Source of the DNA: a virus
Direction: 5' to 3' (one strand)
DNA length: 64,000 nt
Virus record (IMG/VR): IMGVR_UViG_3300045988_175002
A model generated the notes under the pieces. That model did no database searches, was not told where the DNA came from, and worked only from the letters and a program-made list of their open reading frames with translations. The first letter of the stretch is position 1; each line of letters starts with the position of its first letter. The translations under genes and the position numbers were made by a program. Below, piece by piece: positions 8,691-34,064 of the stretch.

Positions 8691-9252
8691 CATCCTCCAC
8701 CATAGCGGCCATTGCGCGTGCGCGTTGAGACCTGCGTTGCCCGTACAGGCGCGCACTGAACGAGTAGATTATCGACACGAAATCCTGAATCAGGTCGGCA
8801 CGGTCATCGGAGGCTTCGTTCACTACGACTATCTTTCGTCCGTCACGTTCAATGAATAGACGGAACCATTCAAAGCCGAAACGGGTCAGCCTGTCCTTAT
8901 GCTCTACTATCAGGGTGCCCCAATCGTCGCGTTTGAGCAATGAGGTGAGCCGACGTCTCTTGTCGTTTAATCCGGAACCCACTTCAGTAACGGACGCAAC
9001 CACTCGATAACCATTAGCAACAGCCCACTCCTCCATGCGCTTCTGCTGGTCAGGGAGTTGGGTTTTACGTTTCGACGGGTCGGAGACACGGGCATAAATG
9101 GCGGCATCATTGAGTTTGACCGCGCTCTCGTCCGGCACGATGATGGTGCCGGACTCATCCTGCCAAGCGCCGGGTATCTTACCAGCCTTGAACCTGTTCC
9201 ACGCGGCACGGTATTGGATACCGTGCTTGGCCGCGTACTCCGATAACTTCAT
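8674..9252 (-). CDS. tnpA: IS607-family serine recombinase TnpA (MerR-like HTH + resolvase catalytic domain)
   Basis: 192 aa. An N-terminal HTH (KLSEYAAKHGIQYRAAWNRFKAGKIPGA) is followed by AAIYARVSDPSKR, which contains the serine-recombinase catalytic Ser motif. Confidence 0.8.
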   Translation of the reverse strand: MKLSEYAAKHGIQYRAAWNRFKAGKIPGAWQDESGTIIVPDESAVKLNDAAIYARVSDPSKRKTQLPDQQKRMEEWAVANGYRVVASVTEVGSGLNDKRRRLTSLLKRDDWGTLIVEHKDRLTRFGFEWFRLFIERDGRKIVVVNEASDDRADLIQDFVSIIYSFSARLYGQRRSQRARAMAAMVEDDNADK

Positions 9253-17964: not shown

Positions 17965-18972
17965 CTATCCCTTGTGCGTTTTCTCATACCATTCCACGAA
18001 TCCCAGCATGGCTTGCTGGAATGATGGTTTGAATTCGCCGTTTACGGGAATGTTTCGGTTGAGTGGCGTGGTCTTATAGTTTTCCGGTAAGGGTGTGGCG
18101 CACCATTCGGGTGGTATCCGGTCGGTGAATGGTTCCTCGCAATCGTCGCTGAACATGAGTCCTACCGGCTTGCCGTTGAGGAGGATTGTTGCGTGGGGGC
18201 TGATTTGTCCTTTCGCCAACCGGTATTCTCCTCTTGTCGTGTGTATTGGATAGTGGAAGGTTTCAGGTAGTCCTCCCCGCCGGTATTCGTCGCGTAATAG
18301 TCGAATCGGATTATAGTAGCGTTCCAATGCGGGGTATGCCCATTCGCATCCGCTCCAACAGTCGCGTACCCTGTCCATTCCGTCCCAGTTTTCTTTCGGA
18401 TTGGGTTGGATGCTGAGTTTGCGGTATCGGTCGGTTTGACACCAGCGGGCGGGATTGTTCAGGGCATAGTTCGGCGTGGTTTGTTCGGCTAACCGTATGA
18501 GAGTGCTGAGGGTGCATGAAGCATAATGTTGCTTGTCGTATCGTGCGACAAGCCGATACGGGTCGGCATCATCCTTGTTAAACACAGGCTTCAACACGCG
18601 TAAATGTTCCTCCGTTACGGGAATATCAAGGTCGGCTGGTAAACCCAACACTTCCATCCAACCTCCAAGCCTGTTCGTATCCCACTTGTAATCCTTGCAG
18701 TATTGCGCTTGCAACAGCCAAACCATCCAACGGCGCACATTCCGCATCAGTACGGGATGGGACGCGAATTCGAGAGGACGCCCCAGCATGTCATGATTCA
18801 CATTATCCGGCGTGGTAATACTGGTTCGATTACCGTACTCGTCCACTGCCGTCACGACGATATTGTGTCCGGCGTCCACAGCCTTGAACATGTCGCTGAT
18901 GTTGTCTTCCACGAACGTGGGCGGAATGGGACGCGACTGGACTTGACCATTAATCGGCACGGAGAGCATCAT
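17965..18972 (-). CDS. hypothetical protein (335 aa, Trp/Tyr-rich)
   Basis: ATG start. No motif recognised. Last gene of the minus-strand unit that contains the DGR. Confidence 0.5.
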   Translation of the reverse strand: MMLSVPINGQVQSRPIPPTFVEDNISDMFKAVDAGHNIVVTAVDEYGNRTSITTPDNVNHDMLGRPLEFASHPVLMRNVRRWMVWLLQAQYCKDYKWDTNRLGGWMEVLGLPADLDIPVTEEHLRVLKPVFNKDDADPYRLVARYDKQHYASCTLSTLIRLAEQTTPNYALNNPARWCQTDRYRKLSIQPNPKENWDGMDRVRDCWSGCEWAYPALERYYNPIRLLRDEYRRGGLPETFHYPIHTTRGEYRLAKGQISPHATILLNGKPVGLMFSDDCEEPFTDRIPPEWCATPLPENYKTTPLNRNIPVNGEFKPSFQQAMLGFVEWYEKTHKG

Positions 18973-19580
18973 TCACCATCCTCACTATTAGAGGCGAGTC
19001 GGGTTCGGAGTTCCCTCAACCGGCCTAACCGTTCCTCCACAGCCTGAATACGAACGTCAACCGCAGTCAACGTGTCACCATCCGGCTCAGACAACTCATA
19101 CTTGCCGGACGACAGTCGTTCCAGAAAACTGGTGGGAACATCCCATACCAATAATCGGAGTTTGTCGGGACTGAGATTCAACCCCGTATACAAGCCGGTT
19201 TTAGGCCACATGCCATCCACGAGAGCCACATTCGGCATCATGCGCGGTGGACGGTCGGGCTGATATTTTTCGACTAGGATTCGACCAGCGAACCAGATAA
19301 TGTCGCTATCCTGCTTGGAGTACGCGTACAAGTAGTCGTAGGGGTCGATGGTGACTGTGACACGCTTTTCAGCGTCCACGCCCTTATGCCACCAGAAATA
19401 TTTGTCTAAAGCTTCGAACACCAGCCTTTCCACACGCATATCGAACGTCCAAGTCTTCAACTTGTCATCAAACGTTCCACCCAACGCGCGGGAGCGACGT
19501 GCGAACAACGGATTATACGGAGCCTTAACCTTCAAACGGACATCACTGCGAGTGACCGTAATATCATCAAAACCTGCCAT
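18969..19580 (-). CDS. hypothetical protein (203 aa)
   Basis: ATG start. Overlaps the next gene by 4 nt, suggesting translational coupling. Lies downstream of the DGR reverse transcriptase. Confidence 0.5.
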   Translation of the reverse strand: MAGFDDITVTRSDVRLKVKAPYNPLFARRSRALGGTFDDKLKTWTFDMRVERLVFEALDKYFWWHKGVDAEKRVTVTIDPYDYLYAYSKQDSDIIWFAGRILVEKYQPDRPPRMMPNVALVDGMWPKTGLYTGLNLSPDKLRLLVWDVPTSFLERLSSGKYELSEPDGDTLTAVDVRIQAVEERLGRLRELRTRLASNSEDGE

Positions 19581-19849: not shown

Positions 19850-21079
19850 TCACGGGTGAAAAGCCAGCTTCCGCATTTCACAATGCCTCCGATACCACGC
19901 TTTCTCCCGAGCGCACAGTCCACGACGGTGAGTTAGACCCGACAGTGTGCTCTCATGGCTCGTCCAAGAATCCTGAACTGTCCGCAATCCCACATGCACG
20001 CCATCATATGAGCGGATAAAGTTACGCGCATGCCGTCGGCTTGCACGCAACGCCTTATGGTGCATGCGGATAAGAATACTGCCGTCATCCTGTACGCTGT
20101 ATACGCGTTTCAGGAATGTGAGTTGACCGGTGCGACAGTCCACTATGCGGGTCTTGCGCTTGTTCAACCGCAATCCCAATTGATTGACATGCCGCTCGTA
20201 ACCGGCCAGCACACGTTCGGCCTGTTCACGATTCTTGCAGAAACAGTAGGCATCATCCATATACCGTCCGTAGAATCCTTGCGACATGCACCAGTGGTCA
20301 ACCTTGTTCAAATACCAGATAGCCATGGTTTGGCTTGTCTGATTGCCTAAACCCAAGTGAGGTTCGTCCAATACGAAGATTCTCAATACGGTTAGAATCC
20401 GTTCCACATCCTGCTTCTCCCGTCCGGTGCGGGCGATGCTCCGGTACAGGGTGGAAATCATATCGAACGCTCGTTGGGAGCTGATACTTCCGAAATAGTT
20501 GGAACAGTCGAAGATGACAGCATACGGATGCTCCCATTTGCCCAAAGCCCGCTTATAGTGTAGTTCGAACCGTTTTCGGGCGAACGATGTTCCACGTTTC
20601 GGTAGGCTTGCCGCATTATCGTATATCAGTTGGCTTTCCACGATGGGGACGAGACTGTTGTCGCATAAGGCGCGTTGCACCACCCGGTCTCGGAAGGATA
20701 CCGCGCTGATGTGGCGGAGTTTGCCTCGTTCGGAAATGTCGAATCGGATTGGCGCTCTCTTCTTGTATGTGCCGTCCTCTAATTCTTGGGCGAGTTTCCA
20801 ACAGTTGACGGCACGCCTATTGTCGAAGTTCAACACTGTGTTTTTCCATGTGACGCCGCGTTTGCATTTTCTTGCGGCTTGGTAGAGCGCGTCGAATCCG
20901 AATGTTTGTTGGAAGTCGATGTAACGGTGGAGCTTCCTGTACTTATCATCCGAGCGTTGTTGCAGTCTGCGTTGGCGTCTTCTACGTCTTTGACTCGCAT
21001 TCACGATTTTAATGCTTCCTTCACTAGGGAAAGAGAAAAGAATGGTTGAGGGCAGGTCGTCGGCAACAACCCAAGACAT
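19850..21079 (-). CDS. DGR-type reverse transcriptase
   Basis: RT motifs are present. RVVQRAL...IYDNAASLPKRGTS covers motifs 1-2. FDCSNYFGSI is motif A. LGLGNQTSQ is the DGR-specific [I/L]GxxxSQ, in place of the group II QGxxxSP. YGRYMDDAY is YMDD. The protein is ~400 aa. It has a ~45-aa Arg-rich N-terminal extension (ATG at 21079; an alternative GTG lies near 21012). Confidence 0.85.
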   Translation of the reverse strand: MSWVVADDLPSTILFSFPSEGSIKIVNASQRRRRRQRRLQQRSDDKYRKLHRYIDFQQTFGFDALYQAARKCKRGVTWKNTVLNFDNRRAVNCWKLAQELEDGTYKKRAPIRFDISERGKLRHISAVSFRDRVVQRALCDNSLVPIVESQLIYDNAASLPKRGTSFARKRFELHYKRALGKWEHPYAVIFDCSNYFGSISSQRAFDMISTLYRSIARTGREKQDVERILTVLRIFVLDEPHLGLGNQTSQTMAIWYLNKVDHWCMSQGFYGRYMDDAYCFCKNREQAERVLAGYERHVNQLGLRLNKRKTRIVDCRTGQLTFLKRVYSVQDDGSILIRMHHKALRASRRHARNFIRSYDGVHVGLRTVQDSWTSHESTLSGLTHRRGLCAREKAWYRRHCEMRKLAFHP

Positions 21080-21261
21080 GCAATGATGTTGGACGCCCAG
21101 CTTAAGGGGCGAGTATCCGTCGTTTCCGACAGTCTTAATATCTCCCTCAACCTATTTCACACGCAACCCATTTTTCGAGGGGCCGCGCATTCGACCATAT
21201 CCCCTTCCCCTTCGGGAGGCTTTCACCCATTGGGCTACTGGCCTATCTGATGTTAGTTTTT

Positions 21262-21427
21262 GGTAAGAGGAATCGGGGACAACGGAGTAGCGATTGTTGG
21301 CATTGTTGTTGTAGCTGGGGTCGCCGTTCGAGTTCACTTGGAGGAAATTGTTGTTGTTGTTCGGGTTGGGCGAACGCTCCCACCAATTGTTGTTGTTAGC
21401 ACCAAGAGGAGTGGAACCGGAAACGGT
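21262..21427 (-). repeat. DGR template repeat (TR)
   Basis: ~165 bp, 91% identical to the 3' end of the target gene (offset 798 bp). The coding strand encodes ..NSNGDPSYNNNANNRYSVVP.. and is rich in AAC/AAT codons. All 15 mismatches to the VR fall on TR coding-strand A positions. Confidence 0.85.
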
Positions 21428-21469: not shown

Positions 21470-21985
21470 TTAGGCTTGCGCCCGAGTATCCATTATAGTG
21501 TTCGTTTTCGACTCGGCGTTTTTAGCTTTCTTCAACTGGTCTCGCTCATACTTGACGGCTCCGGTGAACACGCCCATCGCCTTGTAGAGGGTTCCCGCAT
21601 AGTTCACGAATTTCTTCTCCTTGACGACGGGATTGTATCTGGGGTCGCCTTCCGGATATTTCCTGTAGGCTTCCAAGTCTTTTTCCCGTGGAGGAAACTC
21701 CATCCAATCGTCCACAAGACCGGAGAGTGAGTTCAGCATGCCTTGGGCCTTGCACAACAGTTGCAGTTTCATCTCATGCTCTTCTACAGTGCTTGCATAA
21801 ATGATGTCGGCACTGTAGGCGGAGGAGTACATTTCGTAGGCGATATGCATGACATGCACGGTTTCAATGCAGTTACGGCTTTTAGGCCATTTGCGGAACA
21901 GATTTCTGGTAGCCAAGAGCACGATTCTGGCCTGATTCGCATATTCGCTTTTGGCTTTTGTACGTTTGCTTGCGGGAACCGTCAT
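21470..21985 (-). CDS. avd: putative accessory variability determinant (Avd-like small basic helical protein)
   Basis: 171 aa, basic (K/R-rich). ATG with an AAGGAG ribosome-binding site. It lies between the target and the TR, exactly where avd is found in DGRs. The assignment rests on position, size and charge, not on a recognised motif. Confidence 0.45.
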   Translation of the reverse strand: MTVPASKRTKAKSEYANQARIVLLATRNLFRKWPKSRNCIETVHVMHIAYEMYSSAYSADIIYASTVEEHEMKLQLLCKAQGMLNSLSGLVDDWMEFPPREKDLEAYRKYPEGDPRYNPVVKEKKFVNYAGTLYKAMGVFTGAVKYERDQLKKAKNAESKTNTIMDTRAQA

Positions 21986-22017: not shown

Positions 22018-22045
22018 GGGGTGGTGGGGATGAACCCCACCACCC
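22018..22045. other. perfect GC-rich hairpin immediately 3' of VR (DGR target-recognition hairpin candidate)
   Basis: gggtggtgggg-atgaa-ccccaccaccc is an 11-bp perfect stem with a 5-nt loop. It lies 15 nt past the target stop codon. No U-tract follows on either strand. Confidence 0.6.
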
Positions 22046-22057
22046 AAGGATTGGGGA

Positions 22058-22990
22058 TTAGAAGGAGAAAGCGGGGACAACGGAGTAGCGATAGTTGGCA
22101 CTGTTGTAGTAGCTGGGGTCGCCGTTCGAGTTCACTAGGAGGAAATAGTCGTAGTAGTCCGGGTCGGGCGAACGCTCCCACCAACTGTAGTAGTAAGCAC
22201 CAAGAGGAGTGGAACCGGAAACGGTCTTGTAGATGCCGGAGAGAATGCTATTACCCGACCAGTTATTTGTCACCTTACCGTGGAAATACTCGTATTGGCT
22301 TCCCTCCTGATTCAACGCTTGGAAACCACCAGAGGTCTTCCAACCATCGTATAAGGTTGGTACGAGTTCACGGTAGGAGACGAGCCATACTTTGTCTGCC
22401 GTGGCTGACGCGCTTGAACCGACTGTGCTTCCGTAGGCCATGTTGTTGGTTTGTTTCAGCACGGTTGTGACGTTGTTTTGGAAGTCGGTTGGGAATTGGT
22501 TCCAGATTTCACCATTGTTCATCTGATTGCGAAGAAGACTGTCACGCCAGCCGCCATTATTGGTGTGACTATTGTTCATGGCATACGCTTTCGGTAACGC
22601 GTTCCAAGCCATGAACGTCAATCCTGCTTTTCGTCCACTTCCGTCGGCTTTGTCGTCGTGGAGGATGCCGATGAGTCGGAATGGGAGGTTCGAGCCGTCT
22701 GATAGGGTGAGCGTGCCTTTGACCCCGTCGGTCAGGTTCTTTTCCATTGCGGCATAGTATGTGCTTCCTTTGCCTTTCTCGCTTAAATCGTCGGCAATCT
22801 GTTTCAATCCCGCCGCGTTATAGCCCGCGTAGCAAACCTTGTCCACGCCAGTATTGCATTTGGCTGGTTCGGCGGCTATTGCACTACCGGTGAGGAAGCC
22901 GCCGCAGACCGCGCTCATGATGGCGAGGGTGGCGAGGAGCCGCCGAACCATGTGACGGCTCCCGTGTGATTGTGTGGCGTGTTTGCCCAT
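22058..22990 (-). CDS. DGR variable (target) protein: secreted protein with C-terminal variable CLec-fold-like region
   Basis: ATG at 22988-22990 with a GAAAGGA ribosome-binding site. The signal peptide is MVRRLLATLAIMSAVCGGFLTGSAIA|AEP. The C-terminal ~50 residues (..YYYSWWERSPDPDYYDYFLLVNSNGDPSYYNSANYRYSVVPAFSF) are encoded by the VR. The WLVSYRELVPTL / YSVVP pattern resembles DUF1566/Lcl-type DGR targets; this resemblance is tentative. Confidence 0.75.
   Translation of the reverse strand: MGKHATQSHGSRHMVRRLLATLAIMSAVCGGFLTGSAIAAEPAKCNTGVDKVCYAGYNAAGLKQIADDLSEKGKGSTYYAAMEKNLTDGVKGTLTLSDGSNLPFRLIGILHDDKADGSGRKAGLTFMAWNALPKAYAMNNSHTNNGGWRDSLLRNQMNNGEIWNQFPTDFQNNVTTVLKQTNNMAYGSTVGSSASATADKVWLVSYRELVPTLYDGWKTSGGFQALNQEGSQYEYFHGKVTNNWSGNSILSGIYKTVSGSTPLGAYYYSWWERSPDPDYYDYFLLVNSNGDPSYYNSANYRYSVVPAFSF
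22060..22225 (-). repeat. DGR variable repeat (VR) at 3' end of target gene
   Basis: Aligns to the TR at an offset of 798 bp. The 15 substitutions are A->T (9), A->G (5) and A->C (1) on the coding strand, all at TR adenines. Homology ends a few nt before the stop codon, which marks the IMH-like boundary. Confidence 0.85.
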
Positions 22991-23001
22991 TCTTGTTCCT
23001 T

Positions 23002-26000
23002 TCACTGTTCTTCCTTCTTTCGTAGGAGGATGATTGCCGCGACGAGTCCGCTGATGCTGACGAGCATGAGGAGCGGCAACAGCAATCCCATGCCTGTGTG
23101 CGGCATGGTCGCCAACCATGTTTCAGGCAGGACACCCGCATCCACATGCTCCTTGGTTGGAGCATCTTGGGTGAGGGTGATGGTCAGCTTGTTGTCTTCG
23201 TCCGTGTAAGCGTCCGAATCAGTGGAGCTTCCATCCGTCGCAGGGGTCTTGTCTCCCACATCCGGCGTGGTGAAGTCCCGGTGGTTCACTTTGGTGAATT
23301 GGATACGGTATTTGTTGCCGTTCGCGTCCAGACGTTCGAAAATGTACTTGCCATCCTTGTCGGTCTTGGTGGTTGCCAACTGTTTGCCGTTCTCGTCAGT
23401 CAGAATGACCGTCTGACCGGCGAAATGCGTGTTCTCACCTTCATCTTGGATGCCGTTCTTGTTGGTGTCCTCCCAGTACAGGCCGCTGATGGAACCGAGT
23501 TTCTTCGCGGTGGTGGTTGGTGTGATGATGGTGCCGACTTGGTCGCAGGAGTCCTCGTCGGACGTGCTGAACCAGTGTTGGCGTCCTTCCTCCGTATAGT
23601 CCGTGTCGGTGCGGCATGTCGGATTGCCGGTCACATCATTCGTGTTGGTGTCCAGTTTCGTAGCGTCCGGAGTGTTCGGCGTGGTTTTGCCGATTGCGTG
23701 TGGCGTGCCCGAGTATGGTGTGTGTTCGGAGTCGAACCATGCTTGGTTGAGAATGGTCTTCGTATTCTTCTTAACCCACTCGTCAATGTACGACTGGTCT
23801 TTGCCTGTCATGTCAGCGGTCTCACGGTCAACTGTGCCGGTGAAATGGTAGATGACATAACCGCCCGGCTCAATCGCATACGGCAGATTATACGTGCGAG
23901 TAGTCAACCCATTCTCAGTGGTTTCGCTCGATGGCTCGACCGGTACGGCGGTTGGGTCGGACGATACCGCCATACCTTTCAAACCGGTGGAACGCGCGCC
24001 ACCCGTCTTACCGTCACCATACGGGTCGAAGCCCGCAATCATGACCTGTTTGCCAAGAATGAGCACGTCACGGTCGCCACCCGCCACGTCGGATGCGATG
24101 ATGCCCGTATCGACTGGGCCGATGACGTCCGTGTTGTTACCGGTGGAGCCGTTCGTCCAATACATGCCGTTGCCGGTCTTGCCGTTCGCCAATTGTCCGT
24201 CACCATTCCAGCCTGAGGCCCACAAGTGTTGGTTCTTGTCGATGGCGTACAGGGTATTGTATCCGCCGCTGATTTTCACAATGTCCTTCAAACCGGACAA
24301 GGTAGCACTATAGGTCGAGAACCAGAACACCGTCCCATCGTCTTTTAACGCGTACATTTGACCAAACGCGGCGGCGACTTGCGTGTAACCGCCACTGGAA
24401 AGCTGTCCCAAGGAAACGCCTGTACCGGAGTACAGGTATCCGCCGGACGTGTTCAAGGCGATGAAACCTTCCATGCTCGCACTGAGTTGAGTGAACTTGA
24501 CACCAGAACCGATTTGCGTCCAAGCCGCATAGTTCTGACTGCCTACAGCGTTTCCAACACCCCACAAAGTTCCGTCACTGGCGATGGCGACGGTGAACTG
24601 GTTGCCGCATGCCACGTCCGTGAACGTCTTATCCGAAGCGACTTCCGTCCACTGGTCACGATTATCCGTATCACCCGTACCCAATTGGCTGCTACCATTC
24701 CAACCGGTCGTATACAGGTGGCCGTCCGTGCTGATGGCGGCGGAATGTTTGCCACCGGCGGCGATTTTCAGCCAACTACCGTTGATGATGGTCGGCTTGT
24801 TCACGTTCGTTGGAGTGGCAGAATTCGTCGTGTCAGGCTTGAAACCAAGCTGACCATACTGGTTATTGCCCCACGCATACAACAAGCCCTCGCTCGTCAA
24901 CACGAACTTATGGTCGCCACTCGTCGCGACCTGCTTCGCGCCACCAGATTCGATGGAAACTGTACCGGCGGTAGCGGAAACATCATGCACATCAGCGCTC
25001 ATACGGTCAGAAACGACACTGGACGTGTCAAAACGACTAGTGCCAGAATTCTGTACTTTGACATCCCAGTTGATGACGCATTTCGTATCAGTGCAACTGG
25101 TGCCGGTGACGGTTTTGTCCACGGTGGCTTTCGGGTCTGGTTTCGCGTAACCGTAATCCACGCTGGTCTGGTTGATGCCGATAACCAAGTGGATGTCGTC
25201 GGAAGTGTCTTTCGCATTGGACTTGATTTTGTTCGACCAGCTTCGCGTGTTCACCACGTCTTCAAGCTTGTCGTAGTAGGTTTTGACCTGCGTCTGCACG
25301 CCATCACCCGTACTGGTGCCAGTGTTGCGTTTCACCGAAGTGCGGTAGGTGCCGGAGTGGAGTAGGTCGAACTCGTAATGACCGTCCTTATCGGTCTTCA
25401 CCGTTTTGACGGTCTGCCAGCCGCCGCTTGAATCCTGCTTGCCGAGGGTGACTTCCACCCCTTCGACACGTTCCTCACCGTCTCCGATGAGCGTGTTCTC
25501 ATCCTTATCCCACCAGACGGTGCCGCTGATGCTACCGGCCACTACCTTCGCCACGTCAGGCCACGGCTGGTTGCCCGCCGGTTTGTCGGAAGCGTCGGAA
25601 TAATAGTTGCGACCAAGCCACAGCGTGTACTTGTCGTCTTTCACATTGTCGGATGGGGTGAGTGTGATGGTGCCGTTCACCGCCGAATAGGACAGTTTAT
25701 CGTCAGACGCGACGACAGTGCTGGTCAGTCGGATGGCAGTGATGTTCTTCTTCTCGATGGCGGACAATTCATCCCATGTCTTCCACTCGTAGTCAGCCGG
25801 ATTATCCGACTTCTTTCCGGTGGTGGTTGAATAGTAGACGGTCGTACTGGTCGAATTGTCCATATTGACCGTGACGGGCTGGGTCAGTTCGTAGGAGCCA
25901 TGATAGTTGCTGTATCCACGCTCGTATTCGACCAGCTTGTCCTGCACGTACTTCTCATCACCATTCGCAGGAAGCAGTAGCATGCTATCCATGGTGCCGG

Positions 26001-28377
26001 TGTGACCGCCGCCCTTGCCGTACACGTTGAACTCCCAAGTAAGCGGGTCACTGATTTCAGCCTTCGTGGTCTTCACACGCATGATGCCACTGTTGGTTTC
26101 CGCATTGGAGACAGGGAATGGGACGCTGGGCGTATTGCTTTTGATGGTTTGGGCTTGCAATGCGCCGTTCTCGTCAACGTCCACGCTCATATTCGCACTG
26201 GCGGTCACAGTCCCGGTGGCGAGATTGGATACGATGCCACTGAAATGCAGGTCAGGCAAAGTGGCCGACCCCATACGGTCTACTTCAGGCGTGACTTTGC
26301 CAGAACGTGGCGTGAACACGAGATTATTCCCGTCCACTTTCATCTGCCAGAACGAATCATCACAGGTCGGATTGTACAAGCCTTTCGGTTTCGGCACCGT
26401 GATGGTCGGCGTCATGCTCGTATTGGACAGGAGAATGGTGCGCAACTGTTCCGTGACCGTATAATCCACTCGCATGCCGGGAATCAAATCGACTGCGCTT
26501 CCGGACGGGTGATTGGAACTGTTGTTCGCATACACTTGATTGCCTTCACCATCGTAGGCTTTCAGACTGATGTCGATACTGGTGGTCGGGTCTACCGGCT
26601 TGGCAATCCACACCCAATTGGTGACGCTCGCCTTATCGTCTTCGGTAAGCCATGCGGTCAGCGTATCCAAAGCTTCCACATTGCCTTTGGACACGTCGGC
26701 TATGGCGAGCGTGTTGAACGTGACCTGAACGTTCGGCGCACCCTTTCCTAAAGTCAACGTGTCGGGGTTGAACGTCACCCGAATCTTCTTGACGTTCGGA
26801 GCGTCCGTGTCGGATGGTTCCCCGTCATGCCAATTGTCTTTGCTATCAGCCCATTGAACTTTGTAGTCGGAAACCGGAGCACCGTTCTGGGTGACTTCCA
26901 AGCTTCCATCCCACCGCATGCGCGTATTATCCCACTCATCCTGCATGGTCGGCGTAGTGTTTTTAAGCTTGTCCGCAGTAACGTTCGCCGCATACATTTC
27001 CAAAATGGTTTTGACTTGCGTTCCACGGGACACGGTGTCGCCGGAACCGTCGGAATAGTAATGGTAGATGTCGGCTTTGCCTTCGGCGGCGTCGAACGTC
27101 AGATTCTCCTTGTCGAACATGGTCTTGGACGCAGTGTTAGGACGTTGCAGTCCTTTGCCGAACAGTGGAATCTTGCCAGCTGGAGTCGGCTTGAGCCGTT
27201 GGATGATGGCTCGTGACCAGTCATTGTTCGCGTACGGGTAGCCGACGCGGGCACCCGTATCCTTGTTGTAGGTGCTCTTGTCCCGTCCAATGTTCCAGCC
27301 GGGTTCGCCGCCCTTGCCCATGTTCAACAGTGCGTTGCCGTTATCGTCTTTGACGCTGAACACGGTTTCGTCGGGAACAAGGTGGACATCGTAATATTTG
27401 ACGTCTCCTTCTTTCATGTTTTTGAGCGCGTCGGTTCCGGCGGGAATCCTGTAGCTGATTGTCGCCGCCGTACCGTTTTTGCCACTGGATACGGTCAAAT
27501 ACTGTTCTTTATCACTGTTACGGGTAATCCGCTGACCGCCTACAGTCCACACGGTGCCCTGCGGGAAGTCGGAAATATCCACTTTGGTAGTCCAATCGAT
27601 GCTGGTGGACGCGCCCTTCGTGGACGAATAACCCGGATAGGTCAACGCGTCGGTACGAATAGTGAAATCACCGGTCGCATCGGTGTTCTGACTCCAATAA
27701 GTACGATGCTCATACGAGTATTGGCCTTTCACCGGATTGCCGCCATTGTCAATGACCAAGTCAGCCGCCGGAGCGGATACTACAGTCAGCTCATCCGTAC
27801 GATACGTGGTTGACGTTCCACCTTCGCGGGCGACGACGATTTTCGGAATCTGACCCGGCTTGACCAAGCCTCCCGTGTCTTTTGCTTTCAGATAGAAGGT
27901 TTGGGTCATGGTTTCCACGCCACCGGCTGGAACCGTGTAGGAGCAGGAGCCGTCACTGTTTTTCTTCGCGGTGACGAGTTGTCCCGGCTGGCAGAAGCCA
28001 CCACCGTCAGCAGTCTGCAAATACGGCGCGTCATCCAAGTCGAACTTCACGTTGATGGTACGCTTGCCCGCCGCGTTGAAGTTCAACGTGAGAGAATATT
28101 CGACCGTATCACCGGATGCGACCACGCCATCGGTAGGGGAATCATCGCCCGTGGCGAACCCGTTCTTCGAATTCACGAACGTTTGCGAACTCGTGCCATG
28201 CCCCGTACCGTCGGCTTTCTTAACGATTTTCGCAGTAGCATATGCGGGTTTCAACTCGTCCGCATGCGCTTTCGGAGAGGCTACCGGATTGGTCATGCAT
28301 ATCAGGCCGGATGACAGTGTGGCGATTGCGGCCAATAATGCTACCGGATGTGCCACATGCTTTTTGAGAATACCCAT
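23002..28377 (-). CDS. giant LPXTG-anchored surface adhesin with RCC1 beta-propeller repeats and CnaB/SdrD-B-type domains (~1790 aa)
   Basis: Own start at ATG 28375-28377 with an AAGAAGGAA ribosome-binding site. Signal peptide MGILKKHVAHPVALLAAIATLSSGLICMTNPVASPKAHA. Repeated YxWGxNxxGQLG RCC1 blades. Multiple prealbumin-like B domains of the form GxVWxDxDxNGxxD...DGxYxF. C-terminal LPHTG, followed by a hydrophobic helix and RKKEEQ. In the ORF track it is fused to the sortase ORF. Confidence 0.75.
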   Translation of the reverse strand: MGILKKHVAHPVALLAAIATLSSGLICMTNPVASPKAHADELKPAYATAKIVKKADGTGHGTSSQTFVNSKNGFATGDDSPTDGVVASGDTVEYSLTLNFNAAGKRTINVKFDLDDAPYLQTADGGGFCQPGQLVTAKKNSDGSCSYTVPAGGVETMTQTFYLKAKDTGGLVKPGQIPKIVVAREGGTSTTYRTDELTVVSAPAADLVIDNGGNPVKGQYSYEHRTYWSQNTDATGDFTIRTDALTYPGYSSTKGASTSIDWTTKVDISDFPQGTVWTVGGQRITRNSDKEQYLTVSSGKNGTAATISYRIPAGTDALKNMKEGDVKYYDVHLVPDETVFSVKDDNGNALLNMGKGGEPGWNIGRDKSTYNKDTGARVGYPYANNDWSRAIIQRLKPTPAGKIPLFGKGLQRPNTASKTMFDKENLTFDAAEGKADIYHYYSDGSGDTVSRGTQVKTILEMYAANVTADKLKNTTPTMQDEWDNTRMRWDGSLEVTQNGAPVSDYKVQWADSKDNWHDGEPSDTDAPNVKKIRVTFNPDTLTLGKGAPNVQVTFNTLAIADVSKGNVEALDTLTAWLTEDDKASVTNWVWIAKPVDPTTSIDISLKAYDGEGNQVYANNSSNHPSGSAVDLIPGMRVDYTVTEQLRTILLSNTSMTPTITVPKPKGLYNPTCDDSFWQMKVDGNNLVFTPRSGKVTPEVDRMGSATLPDLHFSGIVSNLATGTVTASANMSVDVDENGALQAQTIKSNTPSVPFPVSNAETNSGIMRVKTTKAEISDPLTWEFNVYGKGGGHTGTMDSMLLLPANGDEKYVQDKLVEYERGYSNYHGSYELTQPVTVNMDNSTSTTVYYSTTTGKKSDNPADYEWKTWDELSAIEKKNITAIRLTSTVVASDDKLSYSAVNGTITLTPSDNVKDDKYTLWLGRNYYSDASDKPAGNQPWPDVAKVVAGSISGTVWWDKDENTLIGDGEERVEGVEVTLGKQDSSGGWQTVKTVKTDKDGHYEFDLLHSGTYRTSVKRNTGTSTGDGVQTQVKTYYDKLEDVVNTRSWSNKIKSNAKDTSDDIHLVIGINQTSVDYGYAKPDPKATVDKTVTGTSCTDTKCVINWDVKVQNSGTSRFDTSSVVSDRMSADVHDVSATAGTVSIESGGAKQVATSGDHKFVLTSEGLLYAWGNNQYGQLGFKPDTTNSATPTNVNKPTIINGSWLKIAAGGKHSAAISTDGHLYTTGWNGSSQLGTGDTDNRDQWTEVASDKTFTDVACGNQFTVAIASDGTLWGVGNAVGSQNYAAWTQIGSGVKFTQLSASMEGFIALNTSGGYLYSGTGVSLGQLSSGGYTQVAAAFGQMYALKDDGTVFWFSTYSATLSGLKDIVKISGGYNTLYAIDKNQHLWASGWNGDGQLANGKTGNGMYWTNGSTGNNTDVIGPVDTGIIASDVAGGDRDVLILGKQVMIAGFDPYGDGKTGGARSTGLKGMAVSSDPTAVPVEPSSETTENGLTTRTYNLPYAIEPGGYVIYHFTGTVDRETADMTGKDQSYIDEWVKKNTKTILNQAWFDSEHTPYSGTPHAIGKTTPNTPDATKLDTNTNDVTGNPTCRTDTDYTEEGRQHWFSTSDEDSCDQVGTIITPTTTAKKLGSISGLYWEDTNKNGIQDEGENTHFAGQTVILTDENGKQLATTKTDKDGKYIFERLDANGNKYRIQFTKVNHRDFTTPDVGDKTPATDGSSTDSDAYTDEDNKLTITLTQDAPTKEHVDAGVLPETWLATMPHTGMGLLLPLLMLVSISGLVAAIILLRKKEEQ

Positions 28378-29283
28378 TAGTGTTCCTTCTTTGCGTGGTT
28401 TTTTTCTACGGATGATGAGAATGGTGATGATGATTACCGCAAGCCAGAAGCCGCCGACGTACAGTATGAGCCATTGGTTCGTGTGGTCTTTCGGCGCGTT
28501 TTCGGGTCTGGGTGCGGGGTGCGGCATGCTGGCGCGCGTGCCGGTCACTAGGAGTCGCTTGTTGTTGATGCCGTATGGCGTGCAGGTTAGGAGTGTGGCG
28601 AGGTCTTTTCCGGCGACGATTTTCAGTTTGGTGAAATCGGATGGGTCTACCACATCAATGCTTGTGACCTTGTAGGCGAGCGTATGTCCGGCGGTTATCA
28701 GATAGAAGACGTCACTTTTTTTGGCTTCACTGCCGAAGCCTCGTAGCTTGTCGAACATGAGCTGGTCTGCCAAACCCGTATGCGCGGATATGACAGTATG
28801 CGTGTTCTTGCCGCCGACGGGGAGACTGGAACCATATAAGTGTCCGGCTCCAGCGGCCAACACGTTTTGCGACGTGCCATGCCGGATGGGCAGGTTGATG
28901 CCCAAGCGTGGATATTTGATGGTAGCCATGACCCCATCCTTGGGGGTGGATAGTTGCTTCCGATACGTGTTGTCCGTTTCGGACTTGTTGACGCCCGTCC
29001 AAGGGTCTTCCGCCTCACCAAGAATGGGCTGACCCTCCTCGTATAGGCGTTGATTGTAGGCTTTCGCGTCCGCATACTCTTGGGCGATTCGTTTCACGTC
29101 AGTGTTTTCCACGGCTTGCGCGTGGGAGTCAGTCAACCGGTTGGATTGGCTGCTATTCGAAATCATGAGGATGAATGGGATGGTTCCGGACAGGGCGGAT
29201 AGGATTAGGCAGAGGAGTCCCGCTATGGCTCGATTTCCCAAGCCTTTCGGTTTCGCCGTATGTTTTCCCAAAACCCCTCCCAT
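28378..29283 (-). CDS. srtC: class C (pilus-associated) sortase; no in-frame stop before the adhesin start
   Basis: Contains VISAHTG (catalytic His), TLLTCTPYG (the TLXTC catalytic Cys) and a downstream Arg (LLVTGTRA). An N-terminal TM is followed by a C-terminal TM, WLILYVGGFWLAVIIITILII, and then RRKKPRKEG. The reading frame continues without a stop into the adhesin. Confidence 0.7.
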
Positions 29284-29400
29284 GCGGTTATAAAGAATCT
29301 AAAAGGTGGCGTGTCGATATTTGGGTTCCCGACACGCCAAGCGGAACATTTCATGCTTTTCCAGCCGTCAAACGGTCAGAAAAGTTTTCTCATACGACTC

Positions 29401-31092
29401 TCACGCCTTGCGACGAAGCAGCAGGGCGGAAGCGCCAGCCAACAGGACGGTCATCACGCCGAAGATGGACAGCCAGACCGCACCGGTCTTCGGCATGTCG
29501 GCAATGTTACGGGCGTTGATGACGGTCACACCCAGATGGTCGGCGTTCTCGGAAGCCAGATTGTTGGCGTCCTTATCGAACTGACTGAGCGTGTAGGAGC
29601 CGTTCGATTGGTTCACCTTGATGGTCAGGGTGAACTGCGGCAGGATGGAGCCATTGAACGGACTCTTTGTCTCCTTGACCGTGTACTTGCCGTCGAGACC
29701 AGTCAGAGTGAGCACGCCATTGCTAGTAGCGACGCTGGTGACGGTGTCGGTGGTGCCGGTGCTCTCGGTCAGGTCGGCCTTACGGTACGTATTGTCGTTC
29801 ACCTTGATGAACTTGACCGGAGTGGCGGTCTGGTTGCCCTCGTACACCTTGAACTCAGCTCCGGCGAGCGGCGCGTTGTTCGTGTCGTGCTTGGTGAGGG
29901 TGAACTTGCCGACGTACACCTTGTCGGTCTGACCCGGAGTGGTCTTATGGTCGGTGACAGTGTTCGGGTTGTGGGAGTATTCGACGTTGTTGGTGTTGGT
30001 GTCGGCGGTGCCGGAGACGGCGTTCTTGTTCACATACATGTCGTAAGTGACTTTGACGGCGGCATCGACCGGGAACTTGGCTTTCATCGCCACGATGTCG
30101 GATGCGGTGGTGGAGTCACCGGTGGTCGGAGCGAAGATGATGTGGAACTTGCCATCCTCAGTAGTGACCTTGTAATCGGTGTCGCGGATGAGGGTCTTAC
30201 CGTCCACGGTCACGACCATGTTGTCCTTGGCCGCGTCATAGGTCAGGCCCTTGGAATACGTATCGTTGATGGCGTAATAGTACTTGTCGTAGCCAGTCCA
30301 GTTCGGCACTTTGCTGGTCATTTCGAAGCTGACCTTCTTGCCGATAGCGGTTTCGGCGGTCGCGCCACTGTTTTCGACGGTGCCGTTTTCGGCGGCGGTA
30401 ATCTTCTTCGTGACGGTGGTGCTGTGTACCTTATAGTTCACGGTGCCCAGTGTGTAGGTCTTGGCGCCGTTCTTCAACATAGTCTTGCCGTCGATGCCAG
30501 TGCCGTTGAACATGACGATGGATGCCTCGCCCTTGACGGTGGTGTCCACTACCGCATATACGCCCGGACGGACGGATGCGGTCATGTGCTGGGCGTCGGC
30601 GCCCTTGGCGAACGCGGTGCCCTTGTCGCCGGTGACGGCGGTCTCGTTCTTCAACTGGTCGAGGAAGTCACGAAGCTTGCCAGCCCACGGACTGTTCTCG
30701 GAATCAAGCAAGTTCTGTACGACCCACACCATCGGATTGGACGCATTATAGTCGTATCCGGCAGTCTGGTCTTTCTTGGACTTGGTGTCGATATTGGCTT
30801 TAGTCAATGCGTCAGCGATAGCAGAAGCCTTGCCCGCGTCAATCAAGTCAAAGCCAGTAATATTAGTACCATCAGTCTGCGCATACGAATAGTAGGCGAG
30901 CGGCACAGCCTTCAACGTGCGATTGCTAATATCACCATTAGCAGTGACGGTCAACGTCTGACGAGCAGCCGCACCAAGCTTGGATGCGTCAACACGAGCA
31001 TCAGCCGCCATGGCGGAGCCGACTCCAGCCAAACCCATGGCACCGGCCACAAGCGTGGCGACCGTTGCCTTCAACAGGTTTTTGGTTTTCAC
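29401..31092 (-). CDS. sortase-dependent pilin-like surface protein (563 aa) with CnaB-type domains
   Basis: GTG start with an AAGGAAAGGAAA ribosome-binding site. Signal peptide MKTKNLLKATVATLVAGAMGLAGVGSAMA. The YVGKFTLTKHDTNNAPLAGAEFKVY stretch is CnaB/isopeptide-domain-like. The C-terminal sorting signal is DMPKTG, followed by a hydrophobic helix and RRKA; the MPKTG is non-canonical. Confidence 0.65.
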   Translation of the reverse strand: MKTKNLLKATVATLVAGAMGLAGVGSAMAADARVDASKLGAAARQTLTVTANGDISNRTLKAVPLAYYSYAQTDGTNITGFDLIDAGKASAIADALTKANIDTKSKKDQTAGYDYNASNPMVWVVQNLLDSENSPWAGKLRDFLDQLKNETAVTGDKGTAFAKGADAQHMTASVRPGVYAVVDTTVKGEASIVMFNGTGIDGKTMLKNGAKTYTLGTVNYKVHSTTVTKKITAAENGTVENSGATAETAIGKKVSFEMTSKVPNWTGYDKYYYAINDTYSKGLTYDAAKDNMVVTVDGKTLIRDTDYKVTTEDGKFHIIFAPTTGDSTTASDIVAMKAKFPVDAAVKVTYDMYVNKNAVSGTADTNTNNVEYSHNPNTVTDHKTTPGQTDKVYVGKFTLTKHDTNNAPLAGAEFKVYEGNQTATPVKFIKVNDNTYRKADLTESTGTTDTVTSVATSNGVLTLTGLDGKYTVKETKSPFNGSILPQFTLTIKVNQSNGSYTLSQFDKDANNLASENADHLGVTVINARNIADMPKTGAVWLSIFGVMTVLLAGASALLLRRKA

Positions 31093-31274
31093 CTTTGTTT
31101 TCCTTTCCTTACTAGACCCGGCGCGCGTTCATTCATCGAACGGGGTCAATATCGGATTACATTCCTAATATACCGCACGCACCCCATTAAGAACCTTCGA
31201 AAAGGACTCTTTCAGCCTTTGAAAAATAAAGGAGGGCATGGCTTCCCATACCCTCCAACATGCCCCTGAGCAGG

Positions 31275-32672
31275 TTAGTTTCCGGACTGTTCGGAACCTT
31301 TCCCACCTAGTGCGGAACCGGCGGCATGACCGGCCACCATACTGTTCAGTATGGCTTTCAAATCGATGCCCAAGGATTGAGACAATCCCTCACTCAACTG
31401 GCTCACACTGTTCACCGTGTCGCCCACGAGCTTCGTGCTGTTTCCGTCGCCATACATGGTGATGTGGTCTACCTTGGTGAGCGGTTCGGCGGCGGCTCGA
31501 ACCATGTCGGGGAGAATCTGAATGTACTGTTGGGCGAGGATGTACGTGTTGTTCATCGAGTTGTACGCCTCGCCCTGAGCGCGGATTGCCTCCGCCTCGC
31601 CCACGCCCTTGGCCTGTGCGGCGGAGCCTTCAGCCTTGCCTTTGACCTCGGTCGCGTGCGCGTCCGCGTCGGCGGTGGATTGGGTGGCCTGAGCCTCCTG
31701 CTGGCGTAGATACAGTTCCGCATCCGCATGCTTGCGGGTCGTGTACACTTGCGCGTCGGCCTGCTGTTCGGCGGCGTATCTGTCGGCGTCGGCCTTCTTG
31801 CGGATGGTCGCGTTCAGTTTTTGCTCTTCGATTTCGGCGTTCTTCTGTTCGAGGACTGCCTTCTTTTCGGCGGCGGCGATTTCCGCCTCCTGCTCCTTGA
31901 CCTTGAGGGTCTTGGACTGTTCGGCGGCGGTGATGCCCTTCACCGCGTCAGCCTCGGCCTGCGCCTTGTCGGAGATGGATTGGAGTTCGGCTCGTTTCAG
32001 GTCGAGCTGGTTCTGACGGACGGCCACATCCTGTTCCGCGTTGATGGACGCGAGCTTCGCATTCCGGCTGATTTCGGCGGCCATTTCAGCGCCCATGTTG
32101 GCGATGACGTTCTGACGGTCGGTGAAGTCTTGAATGTTGAACGTGGTCAATTGAAGGCCAAGCCGTTCCATGTCCACGCGGGCGGATTCGGCCACGGTCG
32201 CAGCGAACGTGTCCCTGTTCTCCATGAGCTCCTTCAACTCGGTCTTGCCGATGACCTCGCGCAGCTTGCCCAAAAGCACCTGCGTCACGTCCTTCTCCAT
32301 GCGCTCCTTGGACTGGTTCAGATAGTTCTTGGCGGCGTTCTCCAACGCCTTCACCTGTTTACCGTTCTCGTCCACGGTCATGGTCTCGGATGCTATCTGG
32401 AAGTTCGCGACGGCGTTCACGTCGATGAGGATTGCGTCCTTCGTCGGAATCGGCGTGTCGGTTCTCAGGAGCGACTGCACCGCTCCGAGGGAGAGCCAGT
32501 CCACGCGCATGATGAACGGTATGATGAACGCGCTTCCGCCGGAGACGAAGCGTCGTCCGCCCGGCCCGGTGATGACCATGACTCGGTCGGCGGGGCAGAC
32601 CTTGTAGCTTGCGGTTGCGAGCAGGATGATGAGTATCGCCACTGCCGCGACGATTATCAATGTTGTTGGCAT
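31275..32672 (-). CDS. SPFH/band-7 flotillin-family membrane protein
   Basis: An N-terminal TM is followed by an SPFH domain, then a long Ala/Glu/Gln-rich coiled coil (AEIAAAEKKAVLEQKNAEIEEQK...) and a C-terminal region typical of flotillin-like FloA/YqiK proteins. Confidence 0.75.
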   Translation of the reverse strand: MPTTLIIVAAVAILIILLATASYKVCPADRVMVITGPGGRRFVSGGSAFIIPFIMRVDWLSLGAVQSLLRTDTPIPTKDAILIDVNAVANFQIASETMTVDENGKQVKALENAAKNYLNQSKERMEKDVTQVLLGKLREVIGKTELKELMENRDTFAATVAESARVDMERLGLQLTTFNIQDFTDRQNVIANMGAEMAAEISRNAKLASINAEQDVAVRQNQLDLKRAELQSISDKAQAEADAVKGITAAEQSKTLKVKEQEAEIAAAEKKAVLEQKNAEIEEQKLNATIRKKADADRYAAEQQADAQVYTTRKHADAELYLRQQEAQATQSTADADAHATEVKGKAEGSAAQAKGVGEAEAIRAQGEAYNSMNNTYILAQQYIQILPDMVRAAAEPLTKVDHITMYGDGNSTKLVGDTVNSVSQLSEGLSQSLGIDLKAILNSMVAGHAAGSALGGKGSEQSGN

Positions 32673-32723
32673 TGACTTTTTCCTTTCTTTTTTGTGGGAG
32701 TGCCCACTATGATAGAACTTGTT

Positions 32724-34064
32724 TCAGAACTCGTTTTCGAAGTCTGCGGCCATGTCCGCGAATTTGGAGCATTCGCCCATGAACGCGAGATTGAACGTTT
32801 CGGTAGGCCCGTTGCGATGTTTGGCGAGAATCACGTCGGCTTCGCCCGGACGTTCCTCACGGTCGTAGTATTCGGGACGATGCACGAGAAACACCATGTC
32901 GGCGTCCTGTTCGATGGAACCTGATTCACGTAGGTCGGACAGTTCCGGCTTCTTGTCGGCACGCTGTTCCGCATTACGGTTCAACTGGGACAGCACGACC
33001 ACTGGGCATTGCAGTTCCTTGGCGAGCATTTTGCATTGGCGGGAGAAGTTCGACACTTCCTGCTGACGGTTCTCGACGGTTTTACCGGAGGACATGAGTT
33101 GCAGGTAGTCGATGACGATAAGCTTCAACCCGTTGACCTTGCGGCTGAGCGCGCGGCATTTCGCACGGATGGTGCTCATGTTGATGATGGCGGAATCGTC
33201 AACCCACAAGGGTGCCTTCTCGACCTGATGGCAGAGCGCGTTAAGCTTGTTCCAATCATTCGAGTTCAGATTCTCGGGATGTTGGAATGATGCGAGACGG
33301 ATGCCCGTTTCGGCGGCGAACATGCGTTGCATGAGTTCGTGACCGCCCATTTCCAGACTGAAAATCACAGTCGGCAGACCCTTGTGTAGTGCGGCGTTGC
33401 GTGCGAAGTCCATACCCAACGTGCTCTTGCCCATGCCCGGACGACCGGCCACGATGACCATTTGTCCGGCTTGCAGTCCGTGCGTCAACGCGTCGATGTC
33501 GCGGAAGCCGGTGGGTGTTCCGAACTCGGTTGGGTTCTGTGACATTTCATCCAACTGTTGGAGCATTTCGTCGGACAGGCGGTATGCGGTCTTCAACTCG
33601 TCGTCTTCGGAACGGCTTGAATCCTCCAACGAGAACGCGGCCTCCAACGACTTGCGGAGCACGTCTTCGGCGGAAGCGTCGGACACGTTGCTCATCTGTT
33701 GCAACTGTTGTCCGACCACGTTGATGTGGCGGAGGATTGCCGCGTCACGAATCTGCTTGATGAAATAGTCACTGTTGTTCGACGTGGGCGCGGAGCCGAC
33801 AAGCTGGGCGATGTAGTCGATGCCGCCGACCTGTTCCAGCTGTCCGTTGTCCATCATGTGTGAGGACAGCATTTGCGCGTCCACACGGTTATTGTCTGCG
33901 GCCAGTTCCTTTATATTGTGGAAGATGGTCTGGTTGGTCGGCTGGTAGAAGTCCTCTTCGGAAAGCTGGCTGATGACCTTGTCCAACGTTTCCGAGTCTT
34001 GAAGCATGGCCCCCAACAATACTTGCTCGGCCATGTCCTTGTGGATTGGTGTGGGGACGCTCAC
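32724..34064 (-). CDS. dnaB: replicative DNA helicase DnaB family
   Basis: N-terminal PIHKDMAEQVLLGAML matches the DnaB N-domain. Walker A GRPGMGKST. Further DnaB motifs are LSQLNRNAEQRADKKP and SDLRESGSIEQDADMV (RecA-fold H4). GTG start overlaps the upstream stop (GTGA). Confidence 0.85.
   Translation of the reverse strand: MSVPTPIHKDMAEQVLLGAMLQDSETLDKVISQLSEEDFYQPTNQTIFHNIKELAADNNRVDAQMLSSHMMDNGQLEQVGGIDYIAQLVGSAPTSNNSDYFIKQIRDAAILRHINVVGQQLQQMSNVSDASAEDVLRKSLEAAFSLEDSSRSEDDELKTAYRLSDEMLQQLDEMSQNPTEFGTPTGFRDIDALTHGLQAGQMVIVAGRPGMGKSTLGMDFARNAALHKGLPTVIFSLEMGGHELMQRMFAAETGIRLASFQHPENLNSNDWNKLNALCHQVEKAPLWVDDSAIINMSTIRAKCRALSRKVNGLKLIVIDYLQLMSSGKTVENRQQEVSNFSRQCKMLAKELQCPVVVLSQLNRNAEQRADKKPELSDLRESGSIEQDADMVFLVHRPEYYDREERPGEADVILAKHRNGPTETFNLAFMGECSKFADMAADFENEF

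Follow-up and report, generated by a model that had tools for sequence, protein, structure and literature searches.

A diversity-generating retroelement directly downstream of a sortase pilus operon on a Bifidobacterium megaplasmid

In Bacteroides, the targets BfrT, BthT, and BunT of diversity-generating retroelements (DGRs) are tip pilins of type V pili, encoded at the ends of pilus operons on integrative and conjugative elements (ICEs) (10.1101/2024.11.15.621889). These DGR-diversified pilus tips are the nearest precedent for the locus described here, which lies in a 64,000-nucleotide stretch of DNA, IMG/VR record IMGVR_UViG_3300045988_175002 (hereafter the window, meaning the whole stretch that was analyzed). 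The window is part of a Bifidobacterium megaplasmid whose replication protein, RepA, is distantly related to that of the pMP7017 family, and it carries a four-gene pilus operon with a complete DGR directly downstream. We read the locus as a megaplasmid pilus operon joined to a DGR that diversifies a secreted DUF6273 protein, which is likely held at the cell surface through the adhesin or the pilus. We give this reading a probability of about 0.72.

The layout and the logic of the two systems are the same. In both, a pilus operon ends in the gene for the variable protein, after which come an Avd-like gene, a template repeat (TR), and a reverse transcriptase (RT). The diversified residues are placed, here by a structure model, in a C-terminal C-type-lectin-like fold, and both systems sit on a mobile element of a human-gut commensal and are active in human-gut populations. 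However, the Bacteroides type V system relies on lipoproteins and strand exchange, whereas the system described here is predicted to be a Gram-positive, sortase-assembled pilus. The Bacteroides tip is itself a pilin, while the target described here has no pilin domain, lipobox, or sorting signal and thus no entry into the fiber by a known route. The carrier in Bacteroides is an ICE and not a megaplasmid, the host here is a Bifidobacterium (Actinomycetota), and the MutS-like accessory gene of the Bacteroides system has no counterpart at this locus.

In the literature searched, we found no report of a DGR linked to a sortase pilus or to an LPXTG protein; the coverage was incomplete, and an earlier description is possible. 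The literature found on DGRs together with Bifidobacterium concerned prophages or surveys.

The retroelement and its variable protein

The ORF (open reading frame) listing and domain scans gave, on the minus strand, the order pilin, class C sortase, adhesin, DUF6273 target, Avd-like gene, TR, and RT (Table 1). This bore out the gene order and coordinates put forward in an earlier reading of the same DNA made from its letters alone (the sequence-only reading). The 3' end of the target gene is one copy of a 168-nucleotide direct repeat (positions 21260 to 21427 and 22058 to 22225). In the 155-nucleotide core of the repeat, 15 of 15 mismatches fall at adenines of the upstream copy, and we therefore assigned the upstream copy as the TR and the copy within the target gene as the variable region (VR). 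No second VR was found within the window.

The RT matched the Pfam family RVT_1 (3.2e-13) and the reverse transcriptase family phrog_1423 (2.9e-57). DGR-type RTs are marked by the motif pair [I/L]GxxxSQ and YxDD, and the corresponding residues are listed in Table 1. The Avd-like protein gave no match in Pfam, NCBIfam, or PDB sequence searches, including a search with a profile built from remote homologues; the fold comparison alone was of help. The GC-rich hairpin that follows the target gene folds at -29.6 kcal/mol (z = -3.13), and none of 200 shuffled sequences folded as well. It resembles the hairpin or cruciform element found at DGR homing sites, which aids homing in the BPP-1 DGR, and it may act likewise.

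The variation among relatives was then compared with the TR. Distinct target sequences numbered 753 in the 90% cluster of the window and 1,229 and 274 in the sister clusters, counts to be read with caution because one database "variant" (P0121), which holds TR-encoded sequence (NNNN... and then PDSSYQKLTSDR), is a VR/TR chimera and most likely an assembly artifact. Among 15 members of the cluster of the window, residues 14 to 254 were invariant, and 25 of the 27 variable positions corresponded to TR codons with an adenine at position 1 or 2. Nearly all such codons varied (25 of 26), with at most nine residues per position. A second allele lineage had only two-state differences in the body of the protein and 5 to 7 residues per position within residues 278 to 312. 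We also surveyed 29 related loci by tblastn, at 45 to 100% identity. All of those that were RT positive and had a comparable VR and TR (11 of 11) were adenine biased, with 15 to 26 of 16 to 28 mismatches at TR adenines. As judged from these alleles, the VR is shown to be rewritten in an adenine-directed manner by a DGR that is active in human-gut populations.

The target itself is predicted to carry a Sec-type signal peptide with the cleavage site AIA/AEP, and the N terminus has the invariant pattern EPxxC..D.VCYAG. The domain scan found no pilin domain in it. The sequence-only reading had described a signal peptide without an LPXTG motif, and this was confirmed in a stronger form, since the target sequence has no sorting motif at all. 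A lipoprotein anchor was considered and rejected, as the lipobox-like Cys29 is not conserved. TvpA of Treponema denticola and LdtA of Legionella pneumophila are DGR-diversified lipoproteins in the Gram-negative outer membrane; unlike these, the target described here has no lipobox, and its gene is embedded in a pilus operon.

The lectin-like nature that the sequence-only reading had suspected agrees with the structure model, in which the whole mature target forms one DUF6273-type domain. When compared with viral models, it matched phage DUF6273, tail-fiber, and receptor-binding proteins at 12 to 22% identity, while a profile of the target found no match among PDB sequences. From the model, the target is predicted to be a C-type-lectin-like fold that displays the variable residues, as in phage DUF6273 receptor-binding proteins. 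DUF6273 has already been treated as a C-type-lectin-like DGR target in gut phages, in tentaclins and Mtd-like proteins (PMC10743442, 10.1101/2024.10.15.618418). The phage targets share with the present protein the DUF6273 domain, the C-type-lectin-like fold, a VR at the C terminus of that domain, and the existence of relatives that retain the target without a DGR. However, they are receptor-binding proteins of virions, whereas the present protein has a Sec signal peptide and is encoded by the last gene of a bacterial pilus operon.

The pilus operon and its junctions

In all surveyed loci that have upstream sequence, the gene directly upstream of the target is that of the adhesin. The sequence-only reading had made the target the distal, tightly coupled gene of a sortase pilus operon, and this arrangement was kept in all related loci with enough sequence. 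It had also described the intergenic gaps as tiny; the adhesin and target are 11 nucleotides apart (and not the 12 bp that it gave), and the pilin and sortase 117 nucleotides. Its statement that no terminator intervenes holds from the sortase onward; the gap between pilin and sortase contains a terminator-like hairpin with a U-rich tail.

The spacer between the adhesin stop codon (23002) and the target ATG (22990) had no meaningful structure (-4.9 kcal/mol, z = +0.34). A terminator-like match at positions 23108 to 23088 was rejected because its U tail is poor and it falls within the adhesin coding sequence, in the part that encodes MPHTG. Three types of junction were found among the related loci: the 11-nucleotide spacer with a ribosome-binding site (RBS) on the megaplasmids, a 14-nucleotide overlap, ATGACAAGGCATGA, in chromosomal Bifidobacterium loci, and a 4-nucleotide ATGA overlap in Senegalimassilia. 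Since these three distinct solutions are equally tight, they argue for co-translation of the adhesin and the target.

The adhesin consists of a large N-terminal region without a family match, CnaB/SdrD_B and prealbumin-like domains, an RCC1 beta-propeller, and a second SdrD_B domain, and it ends in MPHTG, a transmembrane (TM) segment, and RKKEEQ. Its Pfam matches were WD40_RLD (5e-47) and SdrD_B (5.3e-25), together with RCC1_2, RCC1, and SpaA. Among the matches listed, its homologues were mostly stand-alone proteins of about 1,790 to 1,800 amino acids; the search was saturated by relatives at 94 to 98%, and distant RCC1 adhesins without a DUF6273 partner were beyond its reach. The adhesin is likely the tip or ancillary pilin.

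The major pilin matched the Pfam families GramPos_pilinBB (1.1e-19) and SpaA (1.9e-9) and the NCBIfam isopeptide domain TIGR04226 (54.8 bits; cutoff, 30), and it scored 80 bits against the full-length SpaH/EbpB family model, under the cutoff of 95. An E-box-like motif, YTVKETKSP, was found at residue 470, and the sorting signal MPKTG at residue 533 is followed by a TM segment and RRKA; the canonical YPKN pilin motif was not identified in the pilin sequence. Both sortase substrates thus carry MPxTG, and the LPXTG motif that the sequence-only reading had assigned to the adhesin is in fact MPHTG. Their shared MPxTG may mark the two proteins for recognition by the class C sortase of the same operon. 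This sortase scored 222 bits against NF033745 (class_C_sortase; cutoff, 160) and matched the Pfam family Sortase (4.8e-20).

Although the sequence-only reading listed the sortase and adhesin as separate ORFs, the sortase has no stop codon in the window and is in frame with the adhesin, producing a single ORF (23002 to 29283) of 2,093 amino acids. The fusion is due to an A7 tract near the 3' end of the sortase gene. Ten related loci have A6 or A5 (A5 in L006) and one, L010, has A7. The A6 tract, found in most loci, gives a 301-residue sortase whose TAA overlaps the adhesin ATG (TAATG), and in the B. pseudocatenulatum locus L001 the two genes were called as 301 and 1,796 amino acids. The fusion may not matter, because the adhesin retains its own RBS, ATG, and signal peptide. 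The variation in tract length could reflect slipped-strand phase variation or a homopolymer assembly error.

The gap between pilin and sortase holds two hairpins and folds at -41.1 kcal/mol (z = -2.07); in one of the hairpins, ACCUUUUAG comes after a GC stem of 10 bp. All megaplasmid loci keep the two hairpins. In the chromosomal Bifidobacterium-type loci L003, L020, L021, and L022, unrelated yet strong hairpins occupy the same position, and in the Senegalimassilia locus the gap is 47 nucleotides with a weak hairpin only. This conservation suggests that the hairpins are a candidate partial terminator or attenuator that favors the shaft pilin, or else an RNA-stabilizing element.

In SpaA-type pilus clusters of Bifidobacterium and other Gram-positive bacteria, as in this operon, the major pilin combines CnaB and isopeptide domains with an E-box, the class C sortase has the DPW lid and the TLxTC motif, and a large ancillary adhesin bears a sorting signal. 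Compared with these clusters, the operon has in addition a conserved fourth gene encoding a secreted non-pilin DUF6273 protein, the MPxTG motifs, and the attached DGR.

Table 1. Features of the pilus operon, the DGR, and their boundaries in the window
Feature	Coordinates (strand)	Description
Flotillin-like gene terminator	31231..31256 (-)	Strong intrinsic terminator; 11-bp stem, 7 GC pairs, then TTTATTTTTC
Major (shaft) pilin	29401..31092 (-)	563 amino acids, GTG start; signal peptide, CnaB-type and isopeptide domains
Pilin-sortase hairpins	29290..29384 (-)	29384-29356; 29338-29308, then tail ACCUUUUAGAUUCUUUAU
Class C (pilus-specific) sortase	28378..29283 (-)	DPW lid at residue 93, catalytic motif TLLTC at residue 230, C-terminal TM anchor
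Homopolymer A7 tract	28397..28407 (-)	Near the 3' end of the sortase gene
Adhesin	23002..28377 (-)	1,791 amino acids; own RBS GAAGGAA, ATG, signal peptide
Adhesin-target junction	22988..23001 (-)	11-nucleotide spacer holding RBS AAGGAA ahead of target ATG
DGR target	22058..22990 (-)	310 amino acids; predicted secreted, C-type-lectin-like; DUF6273 E = 1.3e-15
VR	22071..22225 (-)	Codons ~256-307 of 310 in the target
GC-rich hairpin	22019..22045 (-)	11 bp, GGGUGGUGGGG-UUCAU-CCCCACCACCC, no U tail; just 3' of VR and stop codon
Avd-like accessory protein	21470..21985 (-)	171 amino acids; divergent four-helix bundle (fold comparison)
TR	21273..21427 (-)	44 adenines; 17 AAY codons in register with the VR
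DGR RT	19850..21079 (-)	409 amino acids; LGNQTSQ at residue 245, YMDD at residue 273

Related loci and the carrier element

Pilin and sortase genes were present wherever the contig of a related locus extends far enough to hold them, as in L003 on the B. moukalabense chromosome and in L005 from a Senegalimassilia genome, the latter being the one locus found in a scan of genome contigs. The sequence-only reading had called for a search of related plasmids for the same synteny, and the four-gene operon was indeed found on related megaplasmid contigs of about 200 to 230 kb; it also occurs on chromosomes without plasmid context. Two pilin alleles, about 74% and 94 to 100% identical to the window pilin, were seen in L001 to L017. 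Which pilin allele a locus carries is independent of its adhesin and target alleles, and this indicates recombination within the operon.

The DGR is less constant than the operon. Intact Avd-like and RT genes were found in megaplasmid-type loci only. In L001 and L002, from a B. pseudocatenulatum isolate (GCA_020526265.1), and in L011, the Avd-like gene is cut to its first 29 to 52 codons and there is no RT, while several chromosomal-type loci keep avd or RT fragments or a 72%-identical TR remnant. From this distribution, the DGR is best described as an accessory and old companion of the operon that has been lost repeatedly: it is intact on megaplasmids and deleted or decayed in chromosomal and some plasmid copies.

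A DGR that is deleted or decayed beside an otherwise intact operon was observed in L001/L002, L011, and L021 to L025. Two ORFs of 203 and 335 amino acids without a Pfam match (positions 17965 to 19580, minus strand) lie 3' of the RT in every DGR-positive locus, and the deletion in L011 extends from avd into the 335-residue ORF.

The plasmid genes of the window are RepA_C and two ParA-like proteins, as found by domain scan. All target homologues with an organism name came from Bifidobacterium (B. pseudocatenulatum and B. moukalabense), and many target homologues sit on contigs of about 190 to 232 kb. The conjugative megaplasmids of the pMP7017 family from B. breve and B. longum (PMC10832533, PMC8313286) likewise have a Bifidobacterium host, a size of about 170 to 230 kb, and a RepA_C-type replication protein. 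However, their RepA is only 36 to 38% identical to that of the window, and neither the pilin nor the target was found by tblastn in the PLSDB plasmids of that family. The pMP7017 transcriptome paper makes no mention of a plasmid sortase, pilus, or RT. Megablast with the locus as query gave no match among the plasmids of PLSDB or the phages of INPHARED. The only plasmid tblastn match to the target, a Collinsella DUF6273 protein at 27% identity, was set aside as unrelated and without pilus context.

Directly upstream of the pilus operon are a flotillin/SPFH gene and a DnaB-type helicase gene (31275 to 34064, minus strand), whose position is kept on all megaplasmid loci. Because a strong terminator ends the flotillin gene (Table 1), the pilus unit begins at the pilin. 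Elsewhere in the window, there are two TnpB/IS605-OrfB-like genes (3302 to 4624 and 7200 to 8756, both minus strand) with OrfB_IS605 and Cas12f1-like_TNB domains; L001 has a similar TnpB-like gene near its pilus operon. A protein with a GmrSD_C restriction-endonuclease domain (58572 to 59597, plus strand) is encoded by a possible plasmid defense gene.

Display and role of the diversified protein

As shown above, the DGR transfers the TR sequence by way of an RNA copy, with errors at adenines, to the final 155 nucleotides of the DUF6273 gene and so rewrites about 25 codons of the C-type-lectin-like binding surface. In the mechanism that we propose, the sortase, adhesin, and target genes would be co-transcribed and the target translationally coupled to the adhesin, as the conserved spacing and synteny suggest, while the major pilin would probably be made in excess owing to the partial terminator after its gene. 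The DUF6273 protein, having neither a sorting motif nor a lipobox, would be exported by the Sec pathway with cleavage of its signal peptide. It would then most likely remain on the cell surface, bound non-covalently to the pilus or to the adhesin with which it is co-translated, a step that we hold with less confidence than the others. The cell would thereby gain a variable head that binds ligands and lets it adhere to glycans or proteins of host, dietary, or microbial origin.

Several observations weigh against this reading. The terminator-like hairpin 3' of the pilin gene may uncouple the pilin from the downstream genes, and the hairpin after the VR could end transcription before avd, in which case the DGR genes may have their own promoter. 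Co-transcription of the sortase, adhesin, and target genes is something that we infer from their arrangement. The DUF6273 protein, with no pilin domain, sorting motif, or lipobox, could simply be released from the cell. In addition, the adhesin call in L004 (3839 to 9989) is split, with a 404-residue opposite-strand ORF inside it, beside an intact target and DGR; tblastn still aligns adhesin residues 1 to 1121 across the split stretch, and the split may be due to an insertion or, with equal likelihood, to a frameshift, a stop codon, or an assembly error. The best match to the adhesin in L017 is limited to residues 1 to 1064. If the disruption in L004 or L017 is real, an intact adhesin is not needed for the target and DGR to persist.

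A more specific form of the proposed mechanism is that the DUF6273 protein is a separately secreted head that docks non-covalently on the pilus tip adhesin, perhaps at the RCC1 propeller. The adhesin would then come in two pieces, a constant sortase-anchored stalk and a DGR-rewritten module, kept at 1:1 by translational coupling. We advance this form tentatively, as less likely than not.

On the other hand, the DUF6273 protein may be a freely secreted or cell-wall-associated variable lectin that is co-regulated with the pilus genes and acts independently of pilus and adhesin. This is the main rival explanation, and the protein fits it in having no LPXTG-like motif, pilin domain, or lipobox and in modeling, when mature, as a single DUF6273-type domain; L004, where the adhesin next to the retained target and DGR may be disrupted, and L017, where the adhesin match is partial, point the same way. 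However, the translational coupling of target and adhesin is conserved across 45 to 100% identity and three junction types, as is typical of partners made in a fixed ratio, and no locus with upstream sequence has the target without the adhesin. Moreover, a soluble lectin diffusing off a Gram-positive cell would bring no obvious benefit to the cell that diversifies it. We consider a lectin acting on its own unlikely, though still a serious contender.

Less likely still is a role in the service of the megaplasmid itself, in which the pilus and the diversified protein would mediate donor-recipient contact in conjugation and the DGR would widen the recipient range. Gram-positive conjugative plasmids often encode surface adhesins, the RepA proteins of the window and of conjugative pMP7017 are distant relatives, and intact DGRs occur on megaplasmid-type loci only, the chromosomal copies having lost theirs. 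However, the conjugative element named by the sequence-only reading found no support here: Pfam detected no relaxase, coupling protein, or type IV secretion system domain among the ORFs of at least 200 amino acids in the 64-kb window, where many ORFs have no family match, and the pMP7017-family plasmids in PLSDB lack this pilin and target. In Bacteroides, moreover, the DGR-diversified pilus tip is dispensable for ICE transfer (10.1101/2024.11.15.621889). Since the operon is also found on chromosomes without plasmid context, binding of a recipient cell by the diversified protein is speculation, and we regard the conjugation role as improbable.

That the DGR and its target are a phage-derived receptor-binding cassette that landed by chance beside the pilus operon, with no functional link, is the least credible explanation. 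In its favor, DGRs of gut phages commonly target DUF6273 proteins (PMC10743442, 10.1101/2024.10.15.618418), the target model matches phage tail-fiber and DUF6273 proteins, and the RT matches a phage RT family. Against it, the target stays in place and coupled to the adhesin in loci that have no DGR and in which phage genes never appear, it has a Sec signal peptide that virion proteins do not need, and its identity to the phage proteins is low.

The reading that we prefer, a pilus operon with a DGR-diversified protein held at the surface, would extend what is known of cellular DGR targets. The ones examined to date, all in Gram-negative bacteria, are lipoproteins or type V pilins, whereas here a DGR is found in the sortase pilus operon of a Gram-positive gut commensal, a host of probiotic interest. 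The carrier belongs to a Bifidobacterium megaplasmid family for which we found no description. Thousands of distinct VR variants in public human-gut assemblies point to a system that is both common and active. The relatives with intact, deleted, or decayed DGRs provide natural controls for the value of hypervariation in colonization and adhesion. As the target is without every known anchoring signal, it poses a concrete question of how it is displayed. If the docked head is true, it would be a new means of displaying a hypervariable protein where the cell has no outer membrane and a mobile, plasmid-borne tool by which bifidobacteria may retune their adhesion in the gut.

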